Below, in pieces: positions 1-12,331 of a DNA stretch of 64,000 nt (position 1 is its first letter; the number at the start of each line of letters is the position of its first letter). This DNA is from Methanobacteriota archaeon (GTDB lineage Archaea > Thermoplasmatota > Thermoplasmata > SG8-5 > DAIRED01): positions 22,795 through 86,794 of the forward strand of contig JAZDNO010000014.1 in the NCBI GenBank assembly GCA_043799545.1. Direction: 5' to 3'. The position numbers and the translations under genes were made by a program. The notes under the pieces were generated by a model, which saw only the letters and a list, made by a program, of their open reading frames with translations, was not told the origin of the DNA and did no database searches.

Positions 1-2553
1 TTAGGTAAAAATGAGCAGGGAAAAACAAATTTTTTAAGAGCAATAGAGTCATTTCGGAACGATTATTCATATACTGAAGAAGATTTGTGTTACCTAACAA
101 CCCATAGCGATGATAATGAAAAAATACCGATAGTAACGATATTTATTGAGCCGAATGTCGATCTGAAAAAATTACTGCAAAAATATGGAGACACAAAAGG
201 GCAGCCAAATATTTATGGTATTACTAAATATTACGATAACCATTATACATTCGAACCAGATTCATTAAAACACATAGTCGAATTAATAAAAATAGAGGAT
301 AAACCTGAACCTGAAACATTAATTGGTAAAATATTGACTGCAGATGAGATTGAGAAAAACATTGAGTGGTTGGTGAGCCTTCAGAATGTTGATGGTGGTT
401 TTTGTTTAATGCCAGGGCAACAATCACAATTACTTCAGACCTATGAAGTAGTTCAATCATTAATTGAACTCGGTGGTTTGAGTAGAATTCATAAACCTAA
501 ACTTATAAAATATATAATTAATACTCAATCCGGCACTGGTGGATTTGGTAGTGCGCCAAACCAACCATCGCAAATTAGCACGACTTATTATGCGATTAGT
601 TTGTTAAAAATGTTAAATGAGTTAAGCAGAGTTAATAAAACAAAACACATTAATTGGATTATTGAAAATAAAACACCAGATAATGGTTATTCAAACCAAC
701 CAAAGCAACCATCGAACTTAAATTCAACATATCAAGCAATTGCGTCTTTAAAACAACTTAATGCGATTAATAGAGTGAATAAAACGGAGATATTAACTTA
801 TATAAAATCAACCCAACACGCAAATGGCGGTTTTAGTCCTATAAAAGGGCAACCACCACAAATGGAATTTACTTATGCAGGCATCAGAATATATAAAATG
901 ATGATGGCAATAAATAATGTCGACGTCGATATTCAAATAAATTGGATAAAGGAATTGCAGACTCCTGACGGTGGCTTCGGCAATACCCCGAATTCGCCTT
1001 CAACGATAGGGAGCACGTTTCAAGCGATTTCAACTATACATGAATTAAATGGCGATTTATCGCTAAAATATAATAGTCTTGAAAAATATATATTGTCATT
1101 AAAAAGTGAAGATGGAGGATTCAGTTCAATTTTAAATCAACCAGTTAATGCCGAGTCGACATTTTTTGGAGTACATTTGGTAAAAGCGTATGGTAAACAT
1201 ACGGGTATTTCTGATATAATGCATACTATCTTGAATAATCTCCCACCGATTATCTATTTTTCCGATATCAACCTATTAAATGATAAAATTGATATTAACG
1301 AGTATCTAGAAAACAGTGTAGAGAATTCGACTTTTACGAATTTATTTAATCTTTCAAATTTGAATTTAGAATATTTACAATCAATCGAAGATCCTCACAA
1401 TCGAAAGCGGTTATTTCGGTCAGCGTCAACAACAATTACTGGGTTAGTAAACGATTCATGGAAACAAGAAAAAGTCAATGTTAATTTAGATATTGATGGT
1501 GATGAAATATTAATTTACATAGAAGATGACGCTGGTGCTAAGGCAGATCCACCTAGTAGGAGAAGTGACGGATTCAGATGGTTCTTATCGTTTTATATAA
1601 ATTTTATCGCTGGAACAAAGGGCGAATTAAAGAACGCTATTTTATTACTTGATAACCTGGGTTGGGTGCTTCATCCTTCTGGTCAAAGCGATTTACTAAC
1701 AACGCTAGAGAAGATATCTCTGAATAATCAAGTAGTCATAGCTACCCATTCACCATTTCTAATCAATAAAGATAAATTAGAGCAAATCCGGATTGTTGAG
1801 CGTAGAAAGAATGATGGTACAAAAATATTTGACAAATACTGGCACTCAATTTACGACTCTTTAGCAATTATTAGAGGTTCCATTGGTGCAGATATTGCCC
1901 ATTCATTGTTTGGTTGTAAGAATAATGTAGTAATGGAAGGATATTCAGATGTGCTATATCTTGAAGCTATTTTAGAATATAACGAAAAAAAGGATCCGAA
2001 AGATAAATTTAAAGAATCAATATTTTTAATAGGTGCCGGTGGCGCTGATAAAATTCCAATATTCTTGACCTTACTTAAAGCAGAAAAGTACAAATGTATT
2101 GGTATAGTTGACAATGACACCGAAGGTAATAAGGTTGTATCAGAAATAAAGCATTCGAATACAGAAATTGATGTGGACAAAGATATTTTAAAATTGAATG
2201 AAATTGATGAGCAAAGAAAAGGAATTAGCTGTGCAATTGAGGATTTGATAGATGAAAAGCTATTTTTAGATATAGTAAATAAAGCTTATGATGAATTGTT
2301 TATAGCAAAGAATATTCACCCATTGAATCAAGGAGATATTAACACTGATGGATTACTAGTAAAAAAATATATAAAAGTTTTTGAGAAGAAAAACATTGGT
2401 GCATTTGATAAAATATTGGTAGCTAAAAAATTTAAAGAATTAATTTTAAACGATCAAATATCGGAAAAAGATTTAAAAGGTACAATAACGCGTTTTAATT
2501 CATTAATTAAAGTTCTAAAAATCAAGTATAAAAAACTTGGAGTCGATTTGTAG
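1..2553 (+). CDS. OLD-family ATP-dependent nuclease (ABC ATPase + TOPRIM) with an internal six-repeat prenyltransferase-beta-like domain; 5' end outside window
   Basis: Frame is open from base 1 (LGKNEQGKTNFL = Walker A). Signature region SRRSDGFRWFLSF, Walker B region ILLLDNLG..LHP, H-loop ATHSPF, TOPRIM VVMEGYSD and IVDND. Six (Q/K)xxxGG(F/Y) repeats at ~349-1197. About 30% GC in sampled lines. Confidence 0.85.
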   Translation, partial: LGKNEQGKTNFLRAIESFRNDYSYTEEDLCYLTTHSDDNEKIPIVTIFIEPNVDLKKLLQKYGDTKGQPNIYGITKYYDNHYTFEPDSLKHIVELIKIEDKPEPETLIGKILTADEIEKNIEWLVSLQNVDGGFCLMPGQQSQLLQTYEVVQSLIELGGLSRIHKPKLIKYIINTQSGTGGFGSAPNQPSQISTTYYAISLLKMLNELSRVNKTKHINWIIENKTPDNGYSNQPKQPSNLNSTYQAIASLKQLNAINRVNKTEILTYIKSTQHANGGFSPIKGQPPQMEFTYAGIRIYKMMMAINNVDVDIQINWIKELQTPDGGFGNTPNSPSTIGSTFQAISTIHELNGDLSLKYNSLEKYILSLKSEDGGFSSILNQPVNAESTFFGVHLVKAYGKHTGISDIMHTILNNLPPIIYFSDINLLNDKIDINEYLENSVENSTFTNLFNLSNLNLEYLQSIEDPHNRKRLFRSASTTITGLVNDSWKQEKVNVNLDIDGDEILIYIEDDAGAKADPPSRRSDGFRWFLSFYINFIAGTKGELKNAILLLDNLGWVLHPSGQSDLLTTLEKISLNNQVVIATHSPFLINKDKLEQIRIVERRKNDGTKIFDKYWHSIYDSLAIIRGSIGADIAHSLFGCKNNVVMEGYSDVLYLEAILEYNEKKDPKDKFKESIFLIGAGGADKIPIFLTLLKAEKYKCIGIVDNDTEGNKVVSEIKHSNTEIDVDKDILKLNEIDEQRKGISCAIEDLIDEKLFLDIVNKAYDELFIAKNIHPLNQGDINTDGLLVKKYIKVFEKKNIGAFDKILVAKKFKELILNDQISEKDLKGTITRFNSLIKVLKIKYKKLGVDL

Positions 2554-2554
2554 T

Positions 2555-3661
2555 CTACCCTTTCCTCGTCACCAGCGTCAGCACGTCCTGGTCCATCAGC
2601 ACGTGGTTCAGCCCGACCGTCTGCCCCGGGAACTTCGAGCTGGGGCCCCAGACGTTGGCGTAGCGGAACTTGCGCTTGAAGTCGCGGTGCAGCGTGTCGC
2701 ATATCATCCCGACTGTCGAGCCTTCCTTCACAACCAGGGGGTCTTTCATGTCCGCGTCCCTGCCCTGCGGCTTCATGTAGATGCTCATGAACTTGAGCCT
2801 CTGGAACAATTCTTCCTTGAGCTCCTCGAGGCCGATGTCCTTGTCCGCGGAGATGGGAATCACATGCCACTTGGACAAGCGCTTCTCCAGGTGGTCCAGA
2901 TACTCGGCGCCCACGAGGTCGACCTTGTTGATGGCGACCAGCGCCGGCAGGTATATCCTGTTCCCCGCCAGATAATCTATCAGCTCCTCCTCGCTTATGT
3001 CCTGGCGGAATACGACGTCGGCGCTCACGAGGTTGAACTCGTTGAGGATGGCTTTGGCTCCGTCCTCGTCGAGCTTCGTCAGCTTCACCGTGCTGTTGAC
3101 GGTTATCCCGCCACGGTCCTTCTTGGCGATGGCAATGTCCGGTGGCCTGGTGTTCAACCGTACGCCGACCTGATATAGCTCCTCCACGAGGACGTCGATG
3201 TTCGTCTCGAAGACGTCCCCCATGAGCAGGACCATGTCCAGCGAGCGCACGACAGACAAAACTTCCCGTCCCCGGCCCTTGCCCTTCGACGCGCCTTTGA
3301 TGAGCCCTGGCAAGTCCAATATCTGTATCTTCGCCCCCCGGTACTCCATGAGCCCCGGCACCACGGTCAGGGTCGTGAACTGGTAAGCGGCGACCTCGCT
3401 CTTCGCGTCCGTGATGTGGTTCAAGAGGGTGCTCTTGCCCACGCTCGGAAAGCCGACGAGTCCGATGGAGGCGTTGCCCGTCTTCTTCACTCCGTAGGAG
3501 AGCCCAGTGGAGCCACCGCTGGTCTTCCGCTTTTCGGCCAGGTCCTTCAGGCGCGAAATCTTTGCCTTAAGGAGGCCGAGGTGGTGGGAAGTTGCCTTGT
3601 TCTTCTGCGTGTTGAGGATTTCCTCCTCAATCGCCTTTATCTGCTCCTCGGGAGTCGGCAT
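2555..3661 (-). CDS. DRG/OBG-family GTP-binding protein with C-terminal TGS domain
   Basis: GFPSVGKST, YQFTTL, DLPG, NKVD motifs; N-terminus MPTPEEQIKAIEEEI (ATG 3661), so the track's upstream extension is not used. Confidence 0.95.
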   Translation of the reverse strand: MPTPEEQIKAIEEEILNTQKNKATSHHLGLLKAKISRLKDLAEKRKTSGGSTGLSYGVKKTGNASIGLVGFPSVGKSTLLNHITDAKSEVAAYQFTTLTVVPGLMEYRGAKIQILDLPGLIKGASKGKGRGREVLSVVRSLDMVLLMGDVFETNIDVLVEELYQVGVRLNTRPPDIAIAKKDRGGITVNSTVKLTKLDEDGAKAILNEFNLVSADVVFRQDISEEELIDYLAGNRIYLPALVAINKVDLVGAEYLDHLEKRLSKWHVIPISADKDIGLEELKEELFQRLKFMSIYMKPQGRDADMKDPLVVKEGSTVGMICDTLHRDFKRKFRYANVWGPSSKFPGQTVGLNHVLMDQDVLTLVTRKG

Positions 3662-3764
3662 CCAAGCGCCCTTAGACGGTCGGTACGTTATCAATTTTGC
3701 TGTCCCCCGAGCGGCGTCACCTTTATTTATCGCATCCACATGCCATCGTTGCCAGGCGTCTGAA

Positions 3765-5054
3765 ATGCCGTTCACCAAAGTGATAAAGGACAGTCTCGCG
3801 GAGAGCCACGTCATAGCTGACATGCGAGACTCGCTGAGGCACTTCAGGAACCAGCAAGCCGATGCCAAACAGCTCATACTGGCCTCCCTCATTTCGGGCT
3901 TCGGGAGCGTGCTGTCGGGTTTCATCCTCGTCCTTTACGTGAATCAGTTCGCAGGGGGAACAGTGGCCTTCGGCTCGATAATGCTCGTGAGCGGCGTTGC
4001 CAACATAATGGTGCTGATGTTCAGCGGGCTGCTGGGCGACTGGGTGGGGCACAAGCCGGTGCTGCTTCTCGCGGGCGTCCTGGCGATTTGCGGGACCGCC
4101 CTCTACGCATCGTTCACCTCTCTTCAGATTTTCTTCGCCGCGGCCGCGCTGGGCGGAGCGAGCGGCGGCCTGGCGGGTCCGGCGACGAATGCGCTCCTGG
4201 CCGAGAAGAGCTCCACGAGCGAATCGAAGTACGTCTTCAGCTATGCATCGTTCGTCGGAACGCTGGCGGGGGCGGCCGGGAACCTGATAGGGGGCATGAT
4301 TCCCATGATATTCAGCAGGTTCATGGACTTCGGGCCGGTGCGGAACTATCAGATGGTGTTCTACTTCGCCGTCGTCTTCCAGGCAATCGGATGGCTATTG
4401 CTCCTGCGCGTCCCCGAGGAACCGCACTGCCACGTGGCCAGGGCCGTGACGAGCGGGGAGCGGAAGAGCGCGTGGCGTTGGATAGCGATGTTCGCTTTGC
4501 CGCAGGCCGTGATTGGATTCGGCGCCGGGTTCGTGATACCCTATTTTCAGGTTTTCTTCGAGCTGCGGTTCGGAGTGTCTGTCGAGGTGATAGCCGTGGC
4601 TTTCATGTTCAATTCGCTGGTGATGGCCGCAGCGCTCCTGCTCATCCCCAAGGCCGCCGAGCGCCTGGGCAGCATGCACGCCACCATGGCCACGCAAATA
4701 GGGGCGATTGTGCTCCTCGTAATCATCCCCTTCGTTCCGCCCCCTCACTACTGGCTATGCGTCGTCCTGTTCATCGCCAGGATGGTGCTGATGAACGTGT
4801 CCGGTCCGATAATCACGGCCTACATGATGCAGAAGGTCCCGACGCACGCGCGCGGCACAGCCACGAGCATGACGATGATAGCCTGGATTTCATCCAATTC
4901 CCTCGGGATGTTCTTCGGAGGCTTCATGTGGAACGGCGCCAGCGCTGGGTACGTCCCCCAGTTCATCATCTGCACATCCCTTTACATAGCGGCGACGTGC
5001 CTCTACGCCAGCTTCTTCCTGAAGGCGGATGACAAGGCGCCGGCTGCCAGTTAA
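3765..5054 (+). CDS. MFS transporter
   Basis: About 12 hydrophobic segments, motif A-like GLLGDWVGHK and AAERLG; start set at ATG 3765. Confidence 0.88.
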   Translation: MPFTKVIKDSLAESHVIADMRDSLRHFRNQQADAKQLILASLISGFGSVLSGFILVLYVNQFAGGTVAFGSIMLVSGVANIMVLMFSGLLGDWVGHKPVLLLAGVLAICGTALYASFTSLQIFFAAAALGGASGGLAGPATNALLAEKSSTSESKYVFSYASFVGTLAGAAGNLIGGMIPMIFSRFMDFGPVRNYQMVFYFAVVFQAIGWLLLLRVPEEPHCHVARAVTSGERKSAWRWIAMFALPQAVIGFGAGFVIPYFQVFFELRFGVSVEVIAVAFMFNSLVMAAALLLIPKAAERLGSMHATMATQIGAIVLLVIIPFVPPPHYWLCVVLFIARMVLMNVSGPIITAYMMQKVPTHARGTATSMTMIAWISSNSLGMFFGGFMWNGASAGYVPQFIICTSLYIAATCLYASFFLKADDKAPAAS

Positions 5055-7128: not shown

Positions 7129-7225
7129 TAGCGAGCATTAAAACATTTCCAGACTTTGCATTCCTATTCGATTAGAGGATAATTGATAAATACCGGCACA
7201 CTTATTTCCACCCGTGGTGTGGGCG

Positions 7226-10200
7226 ATGAAGAAATTTGCATCCGGTTGGTTGTGCGTAGTTGTTATCCTGAGCTCATCGTGGGTGGCACTGGATTTGGGG
7301 TTAAAGGTTAAAGCTGATGGATACGGTGACTATCCGCCGCCATTGGCAGGGGATTGGCATATCAACACCGATACCTACGTCGGTAATGAAACAATCATTC
7401 TAGACGGCAATCTTTGGGTTGAATCTGGCTCGACATTGACATTTTACAATGCGAACCTGAGAATGGACAATACGTTCAACGGCGAGCACAACATCCTTGT
7501 GAATGGTACTTTCAATATAAACAATTCGATGATAACGAGCCATGATGGCGTCAACAGATATCTATTTGAATTTCAGGGTTTCAGCGATGGATTGTTTGAA
7601 AAAGCCAACATCAGCTACTGCGGATACGACAACGACCACCGAGGATTCACGGTGTCCGTACCAGACCTTGTCGTGAAGAATTCTACTTTTGACAGGGGAT
7701 ACTTCGGTGTGACACTTCAAACTGATGGTCCGGAATTCTATAACGTGTCCATCACCAATACGGAAGGCAACGGCATGGTATTTTACGGCCCGAACAGCGT
7801 TTTCCAGGATTCTATCATACGCAATTGCACCAACGTGGGCCTGCAAATAGGCTTTAGCGATGCCACAATCACGAACGTCACGATCGAGGATTGCTGGCTT
7901 AGCAACGTCGCCGCTGCTAGCGGCAATGTGTTGTTGGTCAATTCGACATTGAGCAATGCCACTCTGTACTCGGTGCTCCTATCGACCGGTGCCCACCTCA
8001 CATACTTGAACACTACAGATACAAATAACGGATATTACTTTGACGCTGGAACCAGCATGACAAAGAAATGGTTCCTGAACGCCAAGGTGGTGAACGAATC
8101 CGGAAATCCAGTCGTGGGAGCCACGGTACGTGTCAGGGACAACGAAAACGGGACTTACGATGCCAACTTCACAACGGATGCAACAGGTTGGGCGAGATGG
8201 ATCGTGGTCAACGAGTCCTGGGAGAACGAGACAAACGCAATCATCTACACACCACATCAGATTTCGGTTTCCAATGCCACACTGTCTAAAGAGTCCATCC
8301 CCATGCAGATCATGAACCGCAGCAAAAATTTGGTAATCGATTTGGATTCTGCCCTCACTATCCATCTTCCTATCCGTATAAACTCGGACGCGGACTTCGA
8401 TGCGGCGCATGGCGTCGTCAACGAGGCGACTGGCGACGGCTCAGCTGGAAACCCGTGGATCATCGAGAACTACGACATCAACGGCACTGGATACGGATAC
8501 TGCATATATGTCGGGAACACCACTGATTATTTCGTCGTGAGAAATTGCAATTTGCACGAGTCGGGTGGAGTATCATCTTGGCCATATTATACTGGATCTG
8601 GTATCTTGGTAAATAACATACGAAATGGTGTATTATTTAACAACACATTGGCCGATAATAATAATGGCATTCATATATTCGGTTCAAATACCAATCTGAT
8701 TCAAAATAATGGAATCAATGATAACCACAATGGAATTAATGTGGAATTTTCTGCAGGTAATAGCATTCGAGACAATGTGGTTGAGAACAACGATTATGGT
8801 ATCATATTATACCATTCTACCTACAATACTTTGGCTAATAATTCGATGATTAAGGATGGAATATTCATTCGAAGCGGTGATATCGAACATTGGAACACAC
8901 ATAACATCGATAACACAAATACCGTGGATGGCCGCCCAGTTTATTATCTTAAAAATGTAACGTCGGGGAGCATACCGTCCGATGCCGGGCAAGTCATATT
9001 GGCCAACTGTTCCGGCATCAGTGTAAGCAATCTCAGTCTCCAATATGCCGACGCTGGGATTATGATTGGCTATTCAGATAACATCACAGTAAGAAATAAC
9101 ATAATTGTCGGCATCAATTGGTATTGTGACGACAGCGGAATCTTAATGGATAATACTGAGAATGTTAGCGTGGTCAACAACACGATATCTATGTATTCCT
9201 ATGGAATAACTCTTGATAGTTCAGAGTATAACGCACTAGATAGAAACACAATTATCAGTTGCATGGATGGCATTGTTATCCGAGAGGGATATAATCACAA
9301 TATTTCGAACAACTCATTATTGTCTTGTTATCAAGGCATTTTCACATATCCTGGCTGCCGATCAAACATGATCTTTTCAAATCAAATTACAAGTAATGGA
9401 TATGGAATACGGATATGGCAGGGTAACAATAACTCCATTGCGAATAATGATTTTGACCAAAATAACTATGGAATATACCTATCATTTTCATGGGATATCT
9501 GGGCGGGCAGCAACAATACGATATATCATAACAACTTCATCAGCAGCTTTACATATCACGCAGTAGATTCTACATACAACGATTGGAACTTGTCCTACCC
9601 GATTGGCGGTAACTATTGGAGCGATTATACTGGCGTCGATTTAAATGACACACCAGCGCAGAATGTTCCCCCACCAGACGGCATCGGCGACACGCCGTAC
9701 ACGAGCATCGACAGCACGACTGGAGCCCAAGATAACTACCCGCTGATGCATCCAATAGGTTATCCGATTGTCATTTCCACTCTGCCACCATCGGGAGGAA
9801 TCAACATTTCAACCGGAATGTCAGTCACCGTTATTTTCAGCCAGAGCCTGAACACTTCGGTGACGCCGGTATTGACGCAAACGGCCGGCAGCCCCGTCAC
9901 CTACGCCTTCCAGGGTTGGAGCCAGACAAACGTCGCCAACGACACGGCCACGTGGACGCATGGCAATTGGGCGCAGAACAACCTGGTTACAATCGTGGTT
10001 TCGAATTTCATGGATTTGAGCGGCGGCGCTGGGTTCAATCACGCATTTTCATTCAGGACCGCCGACACCATCAGCCCCGTCTCCAGCGTCAACACAATCG
10101 CTGGCTACTGGAAAACGACGTCTCCCATGACAATCGGGGCGTCGGCGAGCGACGGAACCGGCAGCGGCGTTGCCTATGTGGAACTATGGAGCCGGGCATC

Positions 10201-12331
10201 GAGCGACAATGCCACCTGGAGCGCTTGGACGAAGGTGGGAAACGATACGGCGTCCCCGTGGTCGTTCAGCACCAGCATTGCCAGCGGGACGTACCATCAG
10301 TTCTACTCGAGGGCCGGCGACGTCTCAGGCAATTACGAGGCCGCGCCGGGTTCCAGGGACGCCCTTTGCGGGTACGACGCCACGGCCCCAATGACAGCAG
10401 TAAATGCGATTACCCCTTCGACTGCCGCTACCATGAGCCTTTCCATCACTTATTCGAGGAGCGACTCAGCCAGCGGGGTAAAGAACGTCACCTTGTGGTA
10501 CTCTTACTCGGCGAGCGGTACAGCGTACGGCGCCTGGCAAAAGTTCGGCACTGAGAGCGTTTCCCCGGCATTCGCGGCATTTGACTTCAACTTCCCCAGC
10601 GGCGGCGGCTATTACCAGTTCGCAACCAGGGGGACGGATTTCGTGGGCAATTGGGAGAGCGCCCCTTCGGGCAACGACACCTGGGTGTTGAAACTCACTT
10701 CGGACACGACGGCGCCATCGTCGTCGGCCACAGCCTTCGCGCCCTACTGGAAAAATGCCTCCCCGACCGCGATATCAGCGACGGCGAGCGACGCGGGCAG
10801 CGGCATTGCCAACGTGACGCTCTGGTACAGGCACAGCGCCACTAACTCAACATGGACCACGTGGGCGCCGTACGGCATGGACACTGCAGCTCCATGGGAG
10901 TGGAGTTTCGACTTCTCCTACAACCAAGGATATTACCAGTTCTATACCGTCGCAATCGATAACTCGAGCAACGCTGAAGCCGTGCCAACAACGGCCGACG
11001 CCGTCTGCGCATACGATTCCGCGCGGCCAACGATAACAGACAGCAGTCTGGCCACCGGAACAACTGGAGATAGCTACCAGTTCCATACAGTCGTCGTCGA
11101 CAACCTCAATCTATCCACGGTCCGCGTGATATACTGGTTCGGCGCGGGAAGCCAGACGAACACGACCATGGCGCGCACGACTGCCAACAATTACGAATTG
11201 TCAATCGGCGTCCCCTTGACCAGCCTTGCGACGCTCCACTACCGCATCGCGGCCGTGGACCGGGCGGGCAACTGGAACACCACATCGGTCAAGGATGTGC
11301 CAATAGCCGACAACGACGCCCCCGCCGCGAACGCTGGTGCGGACCAGACCGTCGATGCAGGTACCGCAGTCATCTTCGATGGTTCTGGCTCGACTGACAA
11401 CATTGGCATCGTAAACTACACGTGGACGTTCAACGACGGGGTCGGCAACGTCGTTTTGCATGGCGTCACGCCTTCCCATAACTTCACAGGGGAAGGCAAC
11501 TACTCCGTCACCCTCACCGTCAAGGACGGTGCAGGCAACAACGACACGGACACCATGGTCGTGCTGGTCAACCCTGAGGCGCTCGACGATTCGGACGGGG
11601 ACGGCGTCCCGGACGACATCGATGCCTTCCCAGACGACCCGAACGAAACAGCAGACACGGACGGTGATGGCGTCGGAGACAACGGAGATGCTTTCCCGAC
11701 CGATTCCAGCGAGTCAGCGGACACGGACGGTGACGGAGTTGGAGACAATTCCGACGCGTTCCCGAGCAACCCGGACGAATCCATCGACACCGACAATGAC
11801 GGCATTGGTGACAACGCGGACACGGACGACGACGGCGACGGCACACTCGATACCGAGGATCCAGCCCCCCTAGATTCGACGGTCACTGGCGATGACGGCA
11901 GTGGCAATTACTGGTGGATAATAATCATCATCGCAGTCGTAGCTGTGGCGCTTGTGATGGTCATGCTCAAGATGCGAGGCAATCGAGCGCCCGAAGAACC
12001 TGTCGTGGTAGTCTCTGCGGCGGAGCCAACGAAGGCACCAGCGCCCGAACCTATTCCGACGAAAGCATCGGCTCCAGAAATCGCTCCCGCAAAAACGCCA
12101 GAGCCTGTCCAGACCAAAGCGCCGACGCAGGCACCCCCGAAGGCTGAAGAACCCAAGGCAGCTCCACCGCCTCCGATATCATCGTCGCCGATAGCAACAC
12201 CCCAGACGCCGGCCGAGCCACCGCAATTGACCAAGGAGGAGCGCCTCGCAATGTTGAAGAAAGCCTATGACGATGGCAAGATTCCCAAGGAGGCGTACGA
12301 GAGGACAAAAATGCGCCTAGAAAGTCTTTAA
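7226..12331 (+). CDS. Large cell-surface protein: signal peptide, parallel beta-helix (NosD/CASH-like) repeats, Ig-like and PKD domains, thrombospondin type-3-like repeats, TM anchor, Pro-rich linker, SHOCT-like tail
   Basis: N-terminal hydrophobic signal; NNxIxxNxxGI repeats; GGNYWSDY; PKD motif FDGSGSTD..YTWTF; DxDGDGxxD repeats; WWIIIIIAVVAVALV; terminal ERLAMLKKAYDDGKIPKEAYE. Confidence 0.85.
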   Translation: MKKFASGWLCVVVILSSSWVALDLGLKVKADGYGDYPPPLAGDWHINTDTYVGNETIILDGNLWVESGSTLTFYNANLRMDNTFNGEHNILVNGTFNINNSMITSHDGVNRYLFEFQGFSDGLFEKANISYCGYDNDHRGFTVSVPDLVVKNSTFDRGYFGVTLQTDGPEFYNVSITNTEGNGMVFYGPNSVFQDSIIRNCTNVGLQIGFSDATITNVTIEDCWLSNVAAASGNVLLVNSTLSNATLYSVLLSTGAHLTYLNTTDTNNGYYFDAGTSMTKKWFLNAKVVNESGNPVVGATVRVRDNENGTYDANFTTDATGWARWIVVNESWENETNAIIYTPHQISVSNATLSKESIPMQIMNRSKNLVIDLDSALTIHLPIRINSDADFDAAHGVVNEATGDGSAGNPWIIENYDINGTGYGYCIYVGNTTDYFVVRNCNLHESGGVSSWPYYTGSGILVNNIRNGVLFNNTLADNNNGIHIFGSNTNLIQNNGINDNHNGINVEFSAGNSIRDNVVENNDYGIILYHSTYNTLANNSMIKDGIFIRSGDIEHWNTHNIDNTNTVDGRPVYYLKNVTSGSIPSDAGQVILANCSGISVSNLSLQYADAGIMIGYSDNITVRNNIIVGINWYCDDSGILMDNTENVSVVNNTISMYSYGITLDSSEYNALDRNTIISCMDGIVIREGYNHNISNNSLLSCYQGIFTYPGCRSNMIFSNQITSNGYGIRIWQGNNNSIANNDFDQNNYGIYLSFSWDIWAGSNNTIYHNNFISSFTYHAVDSTYNDWNLSYPIGGNYWSDYTGVDLNDTPAQNVPPPDGIGDTPYTSIDSTTGAQDNYPLMHPIGYPIVISTLPPSGGINISTGMSVTVIFSQSLNTSVTPVLTQTAGSPVTYAFQGWSQTNVANDTATWTHGNWAQNNLVTIVVSNFMDLSGGAGFNHAFSFRTADTISPVSSVNTIAGYWKTTSPMTIGASASDGTGSGVAYVELWSRASSDNATWSAWTKVGNDTASPWSFSTSIASGTYHQFYSRAGDVSGNYEAAPGSRDALCGYDATAPMTAVNAITPSTAATMSLSITYSRSDSASGVKNVTLWYSYSASGTAYGAWQKFGTESVSPAFAAFDFNFPSGGGYYQFATRGTDFVGNWESAPSGNDTWVLKLTSDTTAPSSSATAFAPYWKNASPTAISATASDAGSGIANVTLWYRHSATNSTWTTWAPYGMDTAAPWEWSFDFSYNQGYYQFYTVAIDNSSNAEAVPTTADAVCAYDSARPTITDSSLATGTTGDSYQFHTVVVDNLNLSTVRVIYWFGAGSQTNTTMARTTANNYELSIGVPLTSLATLHYRIAAVDRAGNWNTTSVKDVPIADNDAPAANAGADQTVDAGTAVIFDGSGSTDNIGIVNYTWTFNDGVGNVVLHGVTPSHNFTGEGNYSVTLTVKDGAGNNDTDTMVVLVNPEALDDSDGDGVPDDIDAFPDDPNETADTDGDGVGDNGDAFPTDSSESADTDGDGVGDNSDAFPSNPDESIDTDNDGIGDNADTDDDGDGTLDTEDPAPLDSTVTGDDGSGNYWWIIIIIAVVAVALVMVMLKMRGNRAPEEPVVVVSAAEPTKAPAPEPIPTKASAPEIAPAKTPEPVQTKAPTQAPPKAEEPKAAPPPPISSSPIATPQTPAEPPQLTKEERLAMLKKAYDDGKIPKEAYERTKMRLESL
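11586..11870 (+). repeat. Intragenic thrombospondin type-3-like Ca-binding repeats (DSDGDGVPDDIDAFP / DTDGDGVGDN)
   Basis: Four to five imperfect ~23-aa units in frame within the surface protein. Confidence 0.85.

Follow-up and report, generated by a model that had tools for sequence, protein, structure and literature searches.

OLD-type ATPase-nucleases form the core of several anti-phage systems, including P2 Old, Gabija, PARIS and the Septu and retron effectors, and how such systems sense infection is an active question. To our knowledge, archaea have yet to provide an OLD-type ATPase-nuclease with a characterised role in defence. The DNA analysed here, a 64,000-nucleotide (nt) window of contig JAZDNO010000014.1 from an uncultured Thermoplasmata-type archaeon (contig bases 22795-86794), opens inside a gene in which an OLD-family ABC ATPase is interrupted by a ring of prenyltransferase-beta-type repeats, referred to below as the toroid. 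What is such a ring doing within a nuclease? We found no earlier description of this architecture; the OLD family and the toroid fold are each already known. The evidence makes it fairly probable, in our judgement, that the gene encodes a stand-alone OLD-type defence nuclease in which the non-catalytic toroid is a binding module that controls engagement of the ATPase heads, and hence the TOPRIM nuclease.

The enzyme and its inserted toroid

The OLD-toroid gene is an open reading frame (ORF) of 879 codons (L002:11914-14553; L002 gives locus coordinates on the same contig). The window holds its 3′ 850 codons, with frame 1 open from the first base; a further 29 codons precede the window, and the ATG at L002:11914 lies 87 nt upstream of window base 1. 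Residue numbers refer to the full protein of 879 amino acids (aa; P0002). The source genome is 2.06 Mb and 94% complete, and the contig is 86.8 kb long.

The initial annotation, made from the sequence of the window, had described an OLD-family ATPase-TOPRIM protein split by six prenyltransferase-like repeats. Profile searches support both parts of that description: Prenyltrans (E 7e-43), AAA_21 (1.5e-7), OLD-like_TOPRIM (1.8e-6; 28.8 bits vs a cut-off of 23.2) and SQHop_cyclase_N all scored above the curated Pfam cut-offs, well outside the range of chance, and all of the motifs that had been named lie where they had been placed. The top PADLOC model was Old (1e-19), followed by the PtuA and GajA models, all of them covering just the C-terminal ATPase lobe and the TOPRIM domain; the Old match is confined to profile positions 281-478 of 578. 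Sequence matches in the PDB include the Thermus scotoductus (Ts) OLD protein (6p74) and PtuA. No NCBIfam model reached its cut-off for the protein.

Conservation points to a working enzyme. Across 24 aligned homologues, the invariant positions of the ATPase comprise Walker A GKNEQGKT (K37), S551/G553, D580, H587 (D580+7) and H612, and those of the TOPRIM and C-terminal regions comprise E675, D679, D733xD735, E776, D777 and K833. The motif set of P2 Old and Ts OLD consists of the Walker A lysine, the Walker B acid, a D-loop histidine at +7, the H-loop histidine and the metal A and B acids, and the counterparts in the mutated set of P2 Old are K37, D299, H306 and H332 (PMC7049728). The invariants of the OLD-toroid protein match the residues mutated in P2 Old and Ts OLD (PMC7049728). 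Because the OLD motif set is present and invariant throughout, the protein looks like an OLD-family ABC ATPase joined to a two-metal TOPRIM nuclease with both activities apparently intact; E776-D777 are candidate second-metal ligands. We also considered whether Asn581, which follows the Walker B aspartate, indicates a dead ATPase and rejected this, as the canonical Asp-Glu pair plays no part in OLD enzymes (PMC7049728).

The repeats, of the ~48-aa GGF...TY.A type, do split the ATPase, at nt 340-1206 compared with the approximate limits of 349-1197 given earlier. The AlphaFold2 model of the full protein has a mean predicted local distance difference test score (pLDDT) of 79.8, and residues 143-431 form 12 helices at a pLDDT of ~90 that close into an alpha/alpha barrel, as the initial annotation had expected. 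The top Foldseek match was the beta subunit of RabGGTase/GGTase-III, with a template modelling (TM) score of 0.80-0.82 on the target and an E value of 1e-16. VIA-align superposed 281 residues on RabGGTase beta (Z 35.5, root-mean-square deviation 2.0 A), with model residues 138-429 on chain residues 15-304, which is essentially the whole beta subunit.

The features of a prenyltransferase or cyclase active site were not found in this ring, in agreement with the earlier view that it lacks the DxC zinc motif and is catalytically inactive. The zinc ligands D238 and C240 of RabGGTB align to N268 and N270 (HMMER), and DxC is absent at the equivalent position from all six repeats; the sole cysteine of the toroid, C164, directly follows a GGF loop and lacks conservation among the homologues. 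There is no DxDD motif in residues 143-431, the toroid is single vs the two toroids of the cyclases, and the NCBIfam cyclase models scored far under their cut-offs. In addition, the 94%-complete genome contains no PPTA alpha subunit (PF01239) above cut-off and no second Prenyltrans domain. The conserved columns of the toroid are all repeat-consensus positions that alternate between odd and even repeats (W/F, D/N, S/G, G/N, S/P), and a column-by-column analysis found no asymmetric, active-site-like cluster. These positions are structural, and because they alternate in this way the barrel can be described as a pseudo-threefold array of three two-repeat (AB) units, which in the window protein are 30-35% identical to one another. 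Outside the family, the closest toroid sequences occur in large proteins with PKD or collagen repeats, which are not enzymes. The toroid therefore looks like a complete prenyltransferase-beta-like ring that is non-catalytic.

The ring sits between the N-terminal ATPase lobe and the LPxFxYF strand, the site occupied by the helical dimerization domain of solved OLD proteins; in Ts OLD, a four-helix dimerization domain is inserted between beta8 and beta9 (PMC7049728). Toroid-less OLD relatives of ~670 aa carry a helical segment of ~100 aa at the same site. Other toroid-bearing members retain helices on both sides of the repeats, and the model of the two-repeat homologue P0016 consists of a helix (120-148), two hairpins and further helices (232-316), that is, stalk, repeats, stalk. 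The toroid thus appears to have been grafted into the helical insert. Judged by the established topology, the insert site may correspond to the apex of the coiled coil in ABC ATPases of the Rad50/SMC type. In the window copy only short linkers flank the toroid: residues 119-142 are a remnant of the N-side helix that homologues keep, and the helical segment of ~60 aa after the toroid has been lost. This copy forms a long branch on the tree.

Homologues, repeat number and origin of the gene

A search of 5.8 billion clusters for the same domain order, as the initial annotation had proposed, returned 24 proteins with 33-47% BLASTP identity to the window protein, from independent 90%-identity clusters and other assemblies. 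The family amounts to ~25 clusters at 90% identity, with the window gene as a singleton cluster. The best-annotated homologues belong to Woesearchaeota, Thermoplasmata and Thorarchaeota bins, and species-representative genomes add Archaeoglobales, Methanophagales, Thermoplasmatales and a few short contigs in bacterial bins. The toroid-OLD family is rare and patchy, and archaeal so far apart from these short contigs. Source databases name its members as hypothetical, AAA ATPase or prenyltransferase-repeat proteins. A tree built from the C-terminal 440 residues groups the toroid-bearing proteins into what is essentially a single clade within the ~670-aa group (Shimodaira-Hasegawa-like approximate likelihood ratio test 95); the full-length but toroid-less P0067 and some fragments are nested in it.

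The architecture had been called undescribed, and no catalogued system was indeed found; however, it is not unique to the window genome, but belongs to a small archaeal family. PADLOC and NCBIfam hold no model for it. The searchable literature yielded no link between OLD/TOPRIM proteins or anti-phage defence and a prenyltransferase or alpha/alpha toroid, although Krishnan et al. (2020, Nucleic Acids Research) may mention one, and the OLD survey in the Cran1 paper mentions no such toroid (PMC12796447). A separate family of ~1,040 aa from Promethearchaeota/Asgard bins (P0050-P0058) carries Prenyltrans repeats in the N-terminal two thirds and a C-terminal ABC_tran domain, a further and unrelated case in which an alpha/alpha toroid is joined to an ABC ATPase.

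Genes for defence, among them restriction, toxin-antitoxin and abortive-infection genes, and genes for mobility recur around the homologues. One neighbourhood contains an MmeI-type methylase, a PLD-SNF2 helicase, EVE, GmrSD, NYN and an overlapping PLD gene; another contains DpnI, a UvrD-like gene, RNase III and three toxin-antitoxin pairs. Others hold a type IIG restriction-modification gene, HepT/MNT and PIN genes, or AIPR and HNH genes, and transposase and integrase genes were also seen. No conserved partner gene emerged, the ORFs just upstream and downstream of the homologues being mutually unrelated: PLDc_2, DUF6602 and unknown ORFs each adjoin one homologue only, and the UvrD-like gene, on the opposite strand ~1.4 kb upstream with the RNase III gene between, is near one homologue only. 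Split or frameshifted family copies (L029:8001-10500, L020:6440-8963, and P0026 with the next gene) take the forms 333+528 aa, 700 aa followed by a stop, and 617+310 aa overlapping, and are either decaying genes or sequencing errors. The patchy spread, the defence and mobile neighbourhoods, the lack of a partner and the split copies together suggest the pattern of an accessory defence gene.

The number of repeats varies among close relatives. Family members have six, four or two repeats (~940, 845 and 750 aa), and the three forms are interleaved on the tree (homologues P0003-P0025; loci L003, L005, L007, L009, L010). In many homologues the AB units (96 aa) within one protein are 50-95% identical, reaching 92-95% in P0009 and P0012. 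Either the barrel has been repeatedly rebuilt or trimmed by whole AB units, through fast gain and loss or gene conversion, or the assembler has collapsed similar repeats; the six diverged repeats of the window protein are not at risk of such collapse. No tandem repeats were found at the DNA level in the window gene, so the repeats of its toroid are of some age and have diverged. Given the variation in repeat number, the family does not have a closed barrel throughout.

The gene itself is a recent foreign single-gene cassette, horizontally acquired by this archaeon. The guanine-plus-cytosine (GC) content is 0.27-0.35 across the whole gene (~32%) vs 0.53-0.64 on both flanks and ~60% in the genome. 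The gene was absent from all 40 related genomes of the same genus, order and class, two of which hold only a distant OLD. In a same-genus genome (G001) with synteny on both flanks, the NMD3 and DRG genes converge with their stop codons 4 bp apart; where that genome has 4 bp, the window genome has 2,703 bp, namely an AT-rich spacer of 62 bp, the gene and a single further base pair. The spacer contains a TATA-like TTTATAT ~25 nt before the ATG, a placement that, judged by the archaeal promoter consensus, would be consistent with a transcript lacking a leader. Both insertion edges (L002:11852-11858 and L002:14552-14557, the latter window 2552-2557) carry an imperfect direct repeat, AGTCT(C)A, whose left copy resembles the ancestral spacer of 4 bp followed by the former DRG stop codon, as they stand in the same-genus genome. 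The repeat may represent a target-site duplication, a trace of microhomology or chance.

The upstream contig, which the initial annotation had suggested recovering, supplied the start of the gene and showed NMD3 as its neighbour. The partners that had been envisaged there (UvrD, a retron reverse transcriptase or other defence genes) were not found: the gene stands by itself between NMD3 and DRG. We consider a chimera of the assembly unlikely, because the insert lies between two stop codons with neither gene damaged, and because the same domain order occurs in 24 clusters from other assemblies, the low GC is uniform and the flanks are syntenic.

Proposed role, alternatives and related systems

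Among the known OLD proteins, the window protein resembles those of Class 1 (P2 Old, Thermus scotoductus OLD of PDB 6P74, Vibrio cholerae OLD), in which one chain carries an N-terminal ABC ATPase together with a TOPRIM domain at its C-terminus. The same unusual motif set, an insert between the ATPase lobes and the lack of a conserved partner gene are shared; the likeness is one of motifs, layout and a solitary gene. Unlike Class 1 proteins, it has a 290-aa toroid of six hairpins instead of the four-helix dimerization domain, is ~350 aa longer, has a helical region of ~100 aa after the TOPRIM domain where the Class 1 C-terminus is short, and resides in an archaeal host. The closest relatives in sequence are the toroid-less OLDs of ~670 aa (P0067, P0069-P0075) from Thermococci, ANME-1 and others, in both archaea and bacteria, which are 36-46% identical to it over the ATPase lobes, TOPRIM domain and C-terminal helices; these have only the helical insert, whereas the toroid family has stalk, toroid and stalk. 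GajA (Class 2 OLD), AriA/AriB of PARIS and PtuA of Septu and retron systems also have an ABC ATPase controlling a TOPRIM or HNH nuclease, with an ATPase insertion or coiled coil taking part in regulation or assembly. However, these systems need partners (the GajB helicase, AriB, PtuB or a retron) and have no alpha/alpha toroid, whereas the toroid family lacks a conserved adjacent partner; the gene downstream of the window copy is a convergent DRG GTPase and not, as in Gabija, GajB. The fold is that of the beta subunits of RabGGTase, GGTase-I and FTase, an alpha6/alpha6 toroid of ~48-aa GGF repeats. Unlike these, the window barrel has no zinc triad or alpha subunit, is only ~17% identical, is embedded in another enzyme and is a near-symmetrical triplication of a two-repeat unit.

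The transfer as a single gene, the patchy spread and the neighbourhoods of the homologues indirectly support a role in defence against viruses or other mobile DNA, which is also the most likely one. In the proposed mechanism, the toroid would bind the tail of a protein or some hydrophobic ligand, and the filling or emptying of this site would alter the engagement of the two ATPase lobes or heads. The altered engagement would license the TOPRIM nuclease to cut nucleic acid, by DNA nicking or tRNA cleavage as in characterised OLD and PARIS enzymes. As a precedent, an ATPase insertion region in Gabija is described as holding the TOPRIM domain closed until ATP falls (PMC12796447). DNA nicking is the activity of Class 1 OLD, and tRNA cleavage has been reported for AriB and also, by a preprint of 2026, for P2 Old. 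We infer the antiviral role, the binding role of the toroid, its coupling to the nuclease and the substrate. More tentatively, the toroid may be a repeat-built pattern-recognition module at the apex of the ABC ATPase, comparable to the leucine-rich (LRR) and tetratricopeptide (TPR) repeat sensors of STAND NTPases, which captures a viral tail or an isoprenoid-type ligand and switches the nuclease on, its specificity being retuned by gain, loss and homogenisation of the 96-aa two-repeat units.

Several observations weigh against a defence nuclease with a toroid sensor. A single chain with two or four repeats cannot close a barrel, and the central cavity is therefore unlikely to be the constant functional site of the family. 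Conservation of the toroid is only moderately lower than that of the enzyme domains (pairwise identity 43-52% vs 52-61%), which is no clear mark of an arms race, and a search of viral contigs with two peptide patterns found no relative. The window copy, with its stalk lost and on its long branch, may work differently or be decaying. Further, Cran1, of an archaeal OLD clade, is not a defence gene (PMC12796447).

The two- and four-repeat forms leave room for scaffolding or oligomerisation, and sensor and scaffolding roles of the toroid are equally compatible with the data. As a structural module, the toroid would replace or extend the dimerization domain while activation is sensed elsewhere, for instance through nucleotide levels or DNA ends as for GajA and P2 Old, and the barrel of the shorter forms may be completed between chains. 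The insertion exactly at the dimerization-domain site argues for this, as do the missing stalk of the window copy, in which some other part must hold the subunits together, the pseudo-threefold barrel with its purely structural conserved residues, and the change of repeat number in steps of one AB unit. We nevertheless regard it as unlikely, given that ordinary relatives dimerise through a helical insert of ~100 aa, for which a 290-aa barrel would be a costly substitute, that other members have a stalk as well as a toroid, and that the OLD assemblies described so far are dimeric or tetrameric (PMC7049728, PMC12796447), a poor fit to a six-hairpin ring built from two-repeat chains. Enzymatic activity of the toroid, as a prenyl-transferring or terpene-cyclising half of a bifunctional modifier-nuclease, is the least credible of the alternatives. 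The strong Prenyltrans and SQHop_cyclase matches speak for it, and the conserved T-Y/F at the start of each inner helix would arrange aromatic residues in a ring like that of the isoprenoid funnel of prenyltransferases; against this stand the missing Asp/Cys/His triad and DxDD motif, the single non-conserved cysteine, the lack of an alpha subunit in the genome and of position-specific conserved polar residues, and the non-enzymatic company of the closest outside toroids.

Cran1 (Class 5, Sulfolobales) is an archaeal OLD-family ATPase-nickase and provides the model for a housekeeping or chromatin-related function. That a non-defence OLD exists in archaea (PMC12796447), and that the window gene lies among information-processing genes (MCM, NMD3, DRG, ribosomal protein S2), favour this. 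However, Cran1 is vertical, essential, linked to the cell cycle and toroid-less (PMC12796447), whereas the window gene is a foreign singleton that interrupts a 4-bp intergenic site and was not found in the same-genus genome or the 39 other relatives; its foreign GC, the patchy archaeal spread, the defence and mobile neighbourhoods and the frameshifted state of some family copies also make a housekeeping role very improbable. We hold an assembly or binning artefact, or a decaying functionless pseudogene, to be just as improbable. The genome is metagenome-assembled, the gene is a singleton cluster on a long branch with its stalk lost, other family copies are frameshifted and the neighbouring MCM gene has an in-frame TAG. 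Yet the 879-codon ORF is intact with every catalytic residue conserved, the insertion between two intact syntenic genes is clean and lies inside an 86.8-kb contig, the gene has its own AT-rich upstream region with a TATA-like element, and the architecture recurs in independent assemblies.

The OLD-toroid gene is in any case a natural instance of a large, well-folded domain placed at the regulatory or dimerization insert of an ATPase, in a single-gene cassette that is easily moved. If the toroid is the receptor of the trigger, it would represent a new class of sensor for OLD/ABC-type immunity and suggest what the many archaeal proteins with non-catalytic, prenyltransferase-like repeats may be for. 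The series of two, four and six repeats that occurs in nature offers ready-made deletion variants.

Feature coordinates and neighbouring genes

Table 1. Features of the OLD-toroid gene and its borders (window positions unless prefixed L002; res, residues; CDS, coding sequence)
Feature	Position	Strand	Basis or remark
AT-rich 62-bp spacer upstream of OLD-toroid gene	L002:11852-11913	+	sequence
OLD-toroid CDS, res 30-879 and stop	1-2553	+	frame 1 open
ABC ATPase N-terminal lobe, res 1-118; Walker A GKNEQGKT at nt 4-27 (res 31-38, K37)	1-267	+	G31, N33-N39 invariant in 24 homologues; model
Short linker, res 119-142, poorly modelled (pLDDT <50 at 124-138)	268-339	+	AlphaFold2 model, alignment
Six ~48-aa prenyltransferase-beta-type repeats, res 143-431, closed alpha6/alpha6 toroid	340-1206	+	Pfam, AlphaFold2, Foldseek, VIA-align
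ABC ATPase C-terminal lobe, res 432-640	1207-1833	+	Pfam, PADLOC, alignment
LPPIIYFSD strand	1240-1266	+	ATPase C-terminal lobe
Signature RSDGFRW	1561-1581	+	ATPase C-terminal lobe
Walker B D580	1651-1653	+	ATPase C-terminal lobe
D-loop H587	1672-1674	+	ATPase C-terminal lobe
H-loop THSPF, H612	1747-1749	+	ATPase C-terminal lobe
TOPRIM nuclease domain, res 665-775	1906-2238	+	Pfam, PADLOC, PDB match 6p74_A, alignment
TOPRIM EGYSD (E675 at 1936-1938, D679 at 1948-1950)	1936-1950	+	alignment
TOPRIM DND, D733xD735	2110-2118	+	alignment
C-terminal helical region, res 776-879, opens with invariant E776-D777, contains invariant K833	2239-2553	+	alignment, model
Stop codon TAG of OLD-toroid gene	2551-2553	+	sequence
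DRG/Obg-type GTPase, flanking host gene, convergent, stop 1 nt from that of OLD gene	2555-3925	-	right edge of insertion

The genes around the insertion encode MCM, DUF424, NMD3, the DRG GTPase, enolase and ribosomal protein S2. Named relatives of the MCM protein come from Thermoplasmata/Thermoplasmatota bins. The in-frame TAG of the MCM gene (L002:9022-9024) directly follows eight consecutive G and is ~2.98 kb upstream of window base 1. In a 96% identical MCM of a different sample, the position is occupied by Gln (CAG). The frame is unchanged across the TAG, which could be a sequencing error, a population variant or a site of read-through. A second low-GC patch (L002:7501-8500; 0.40-0.45 vs ~0.6), ~4 kb upstream of the window, contains a minus-strand ORF of 249 aa (7527-8276) without a Pfam match and may likewise be a small insert of foreign origin. 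An ORF of 1,705 aa occupies window 7214-12331 on the plus strand, downstream of the gene for ribosomal protein S2.

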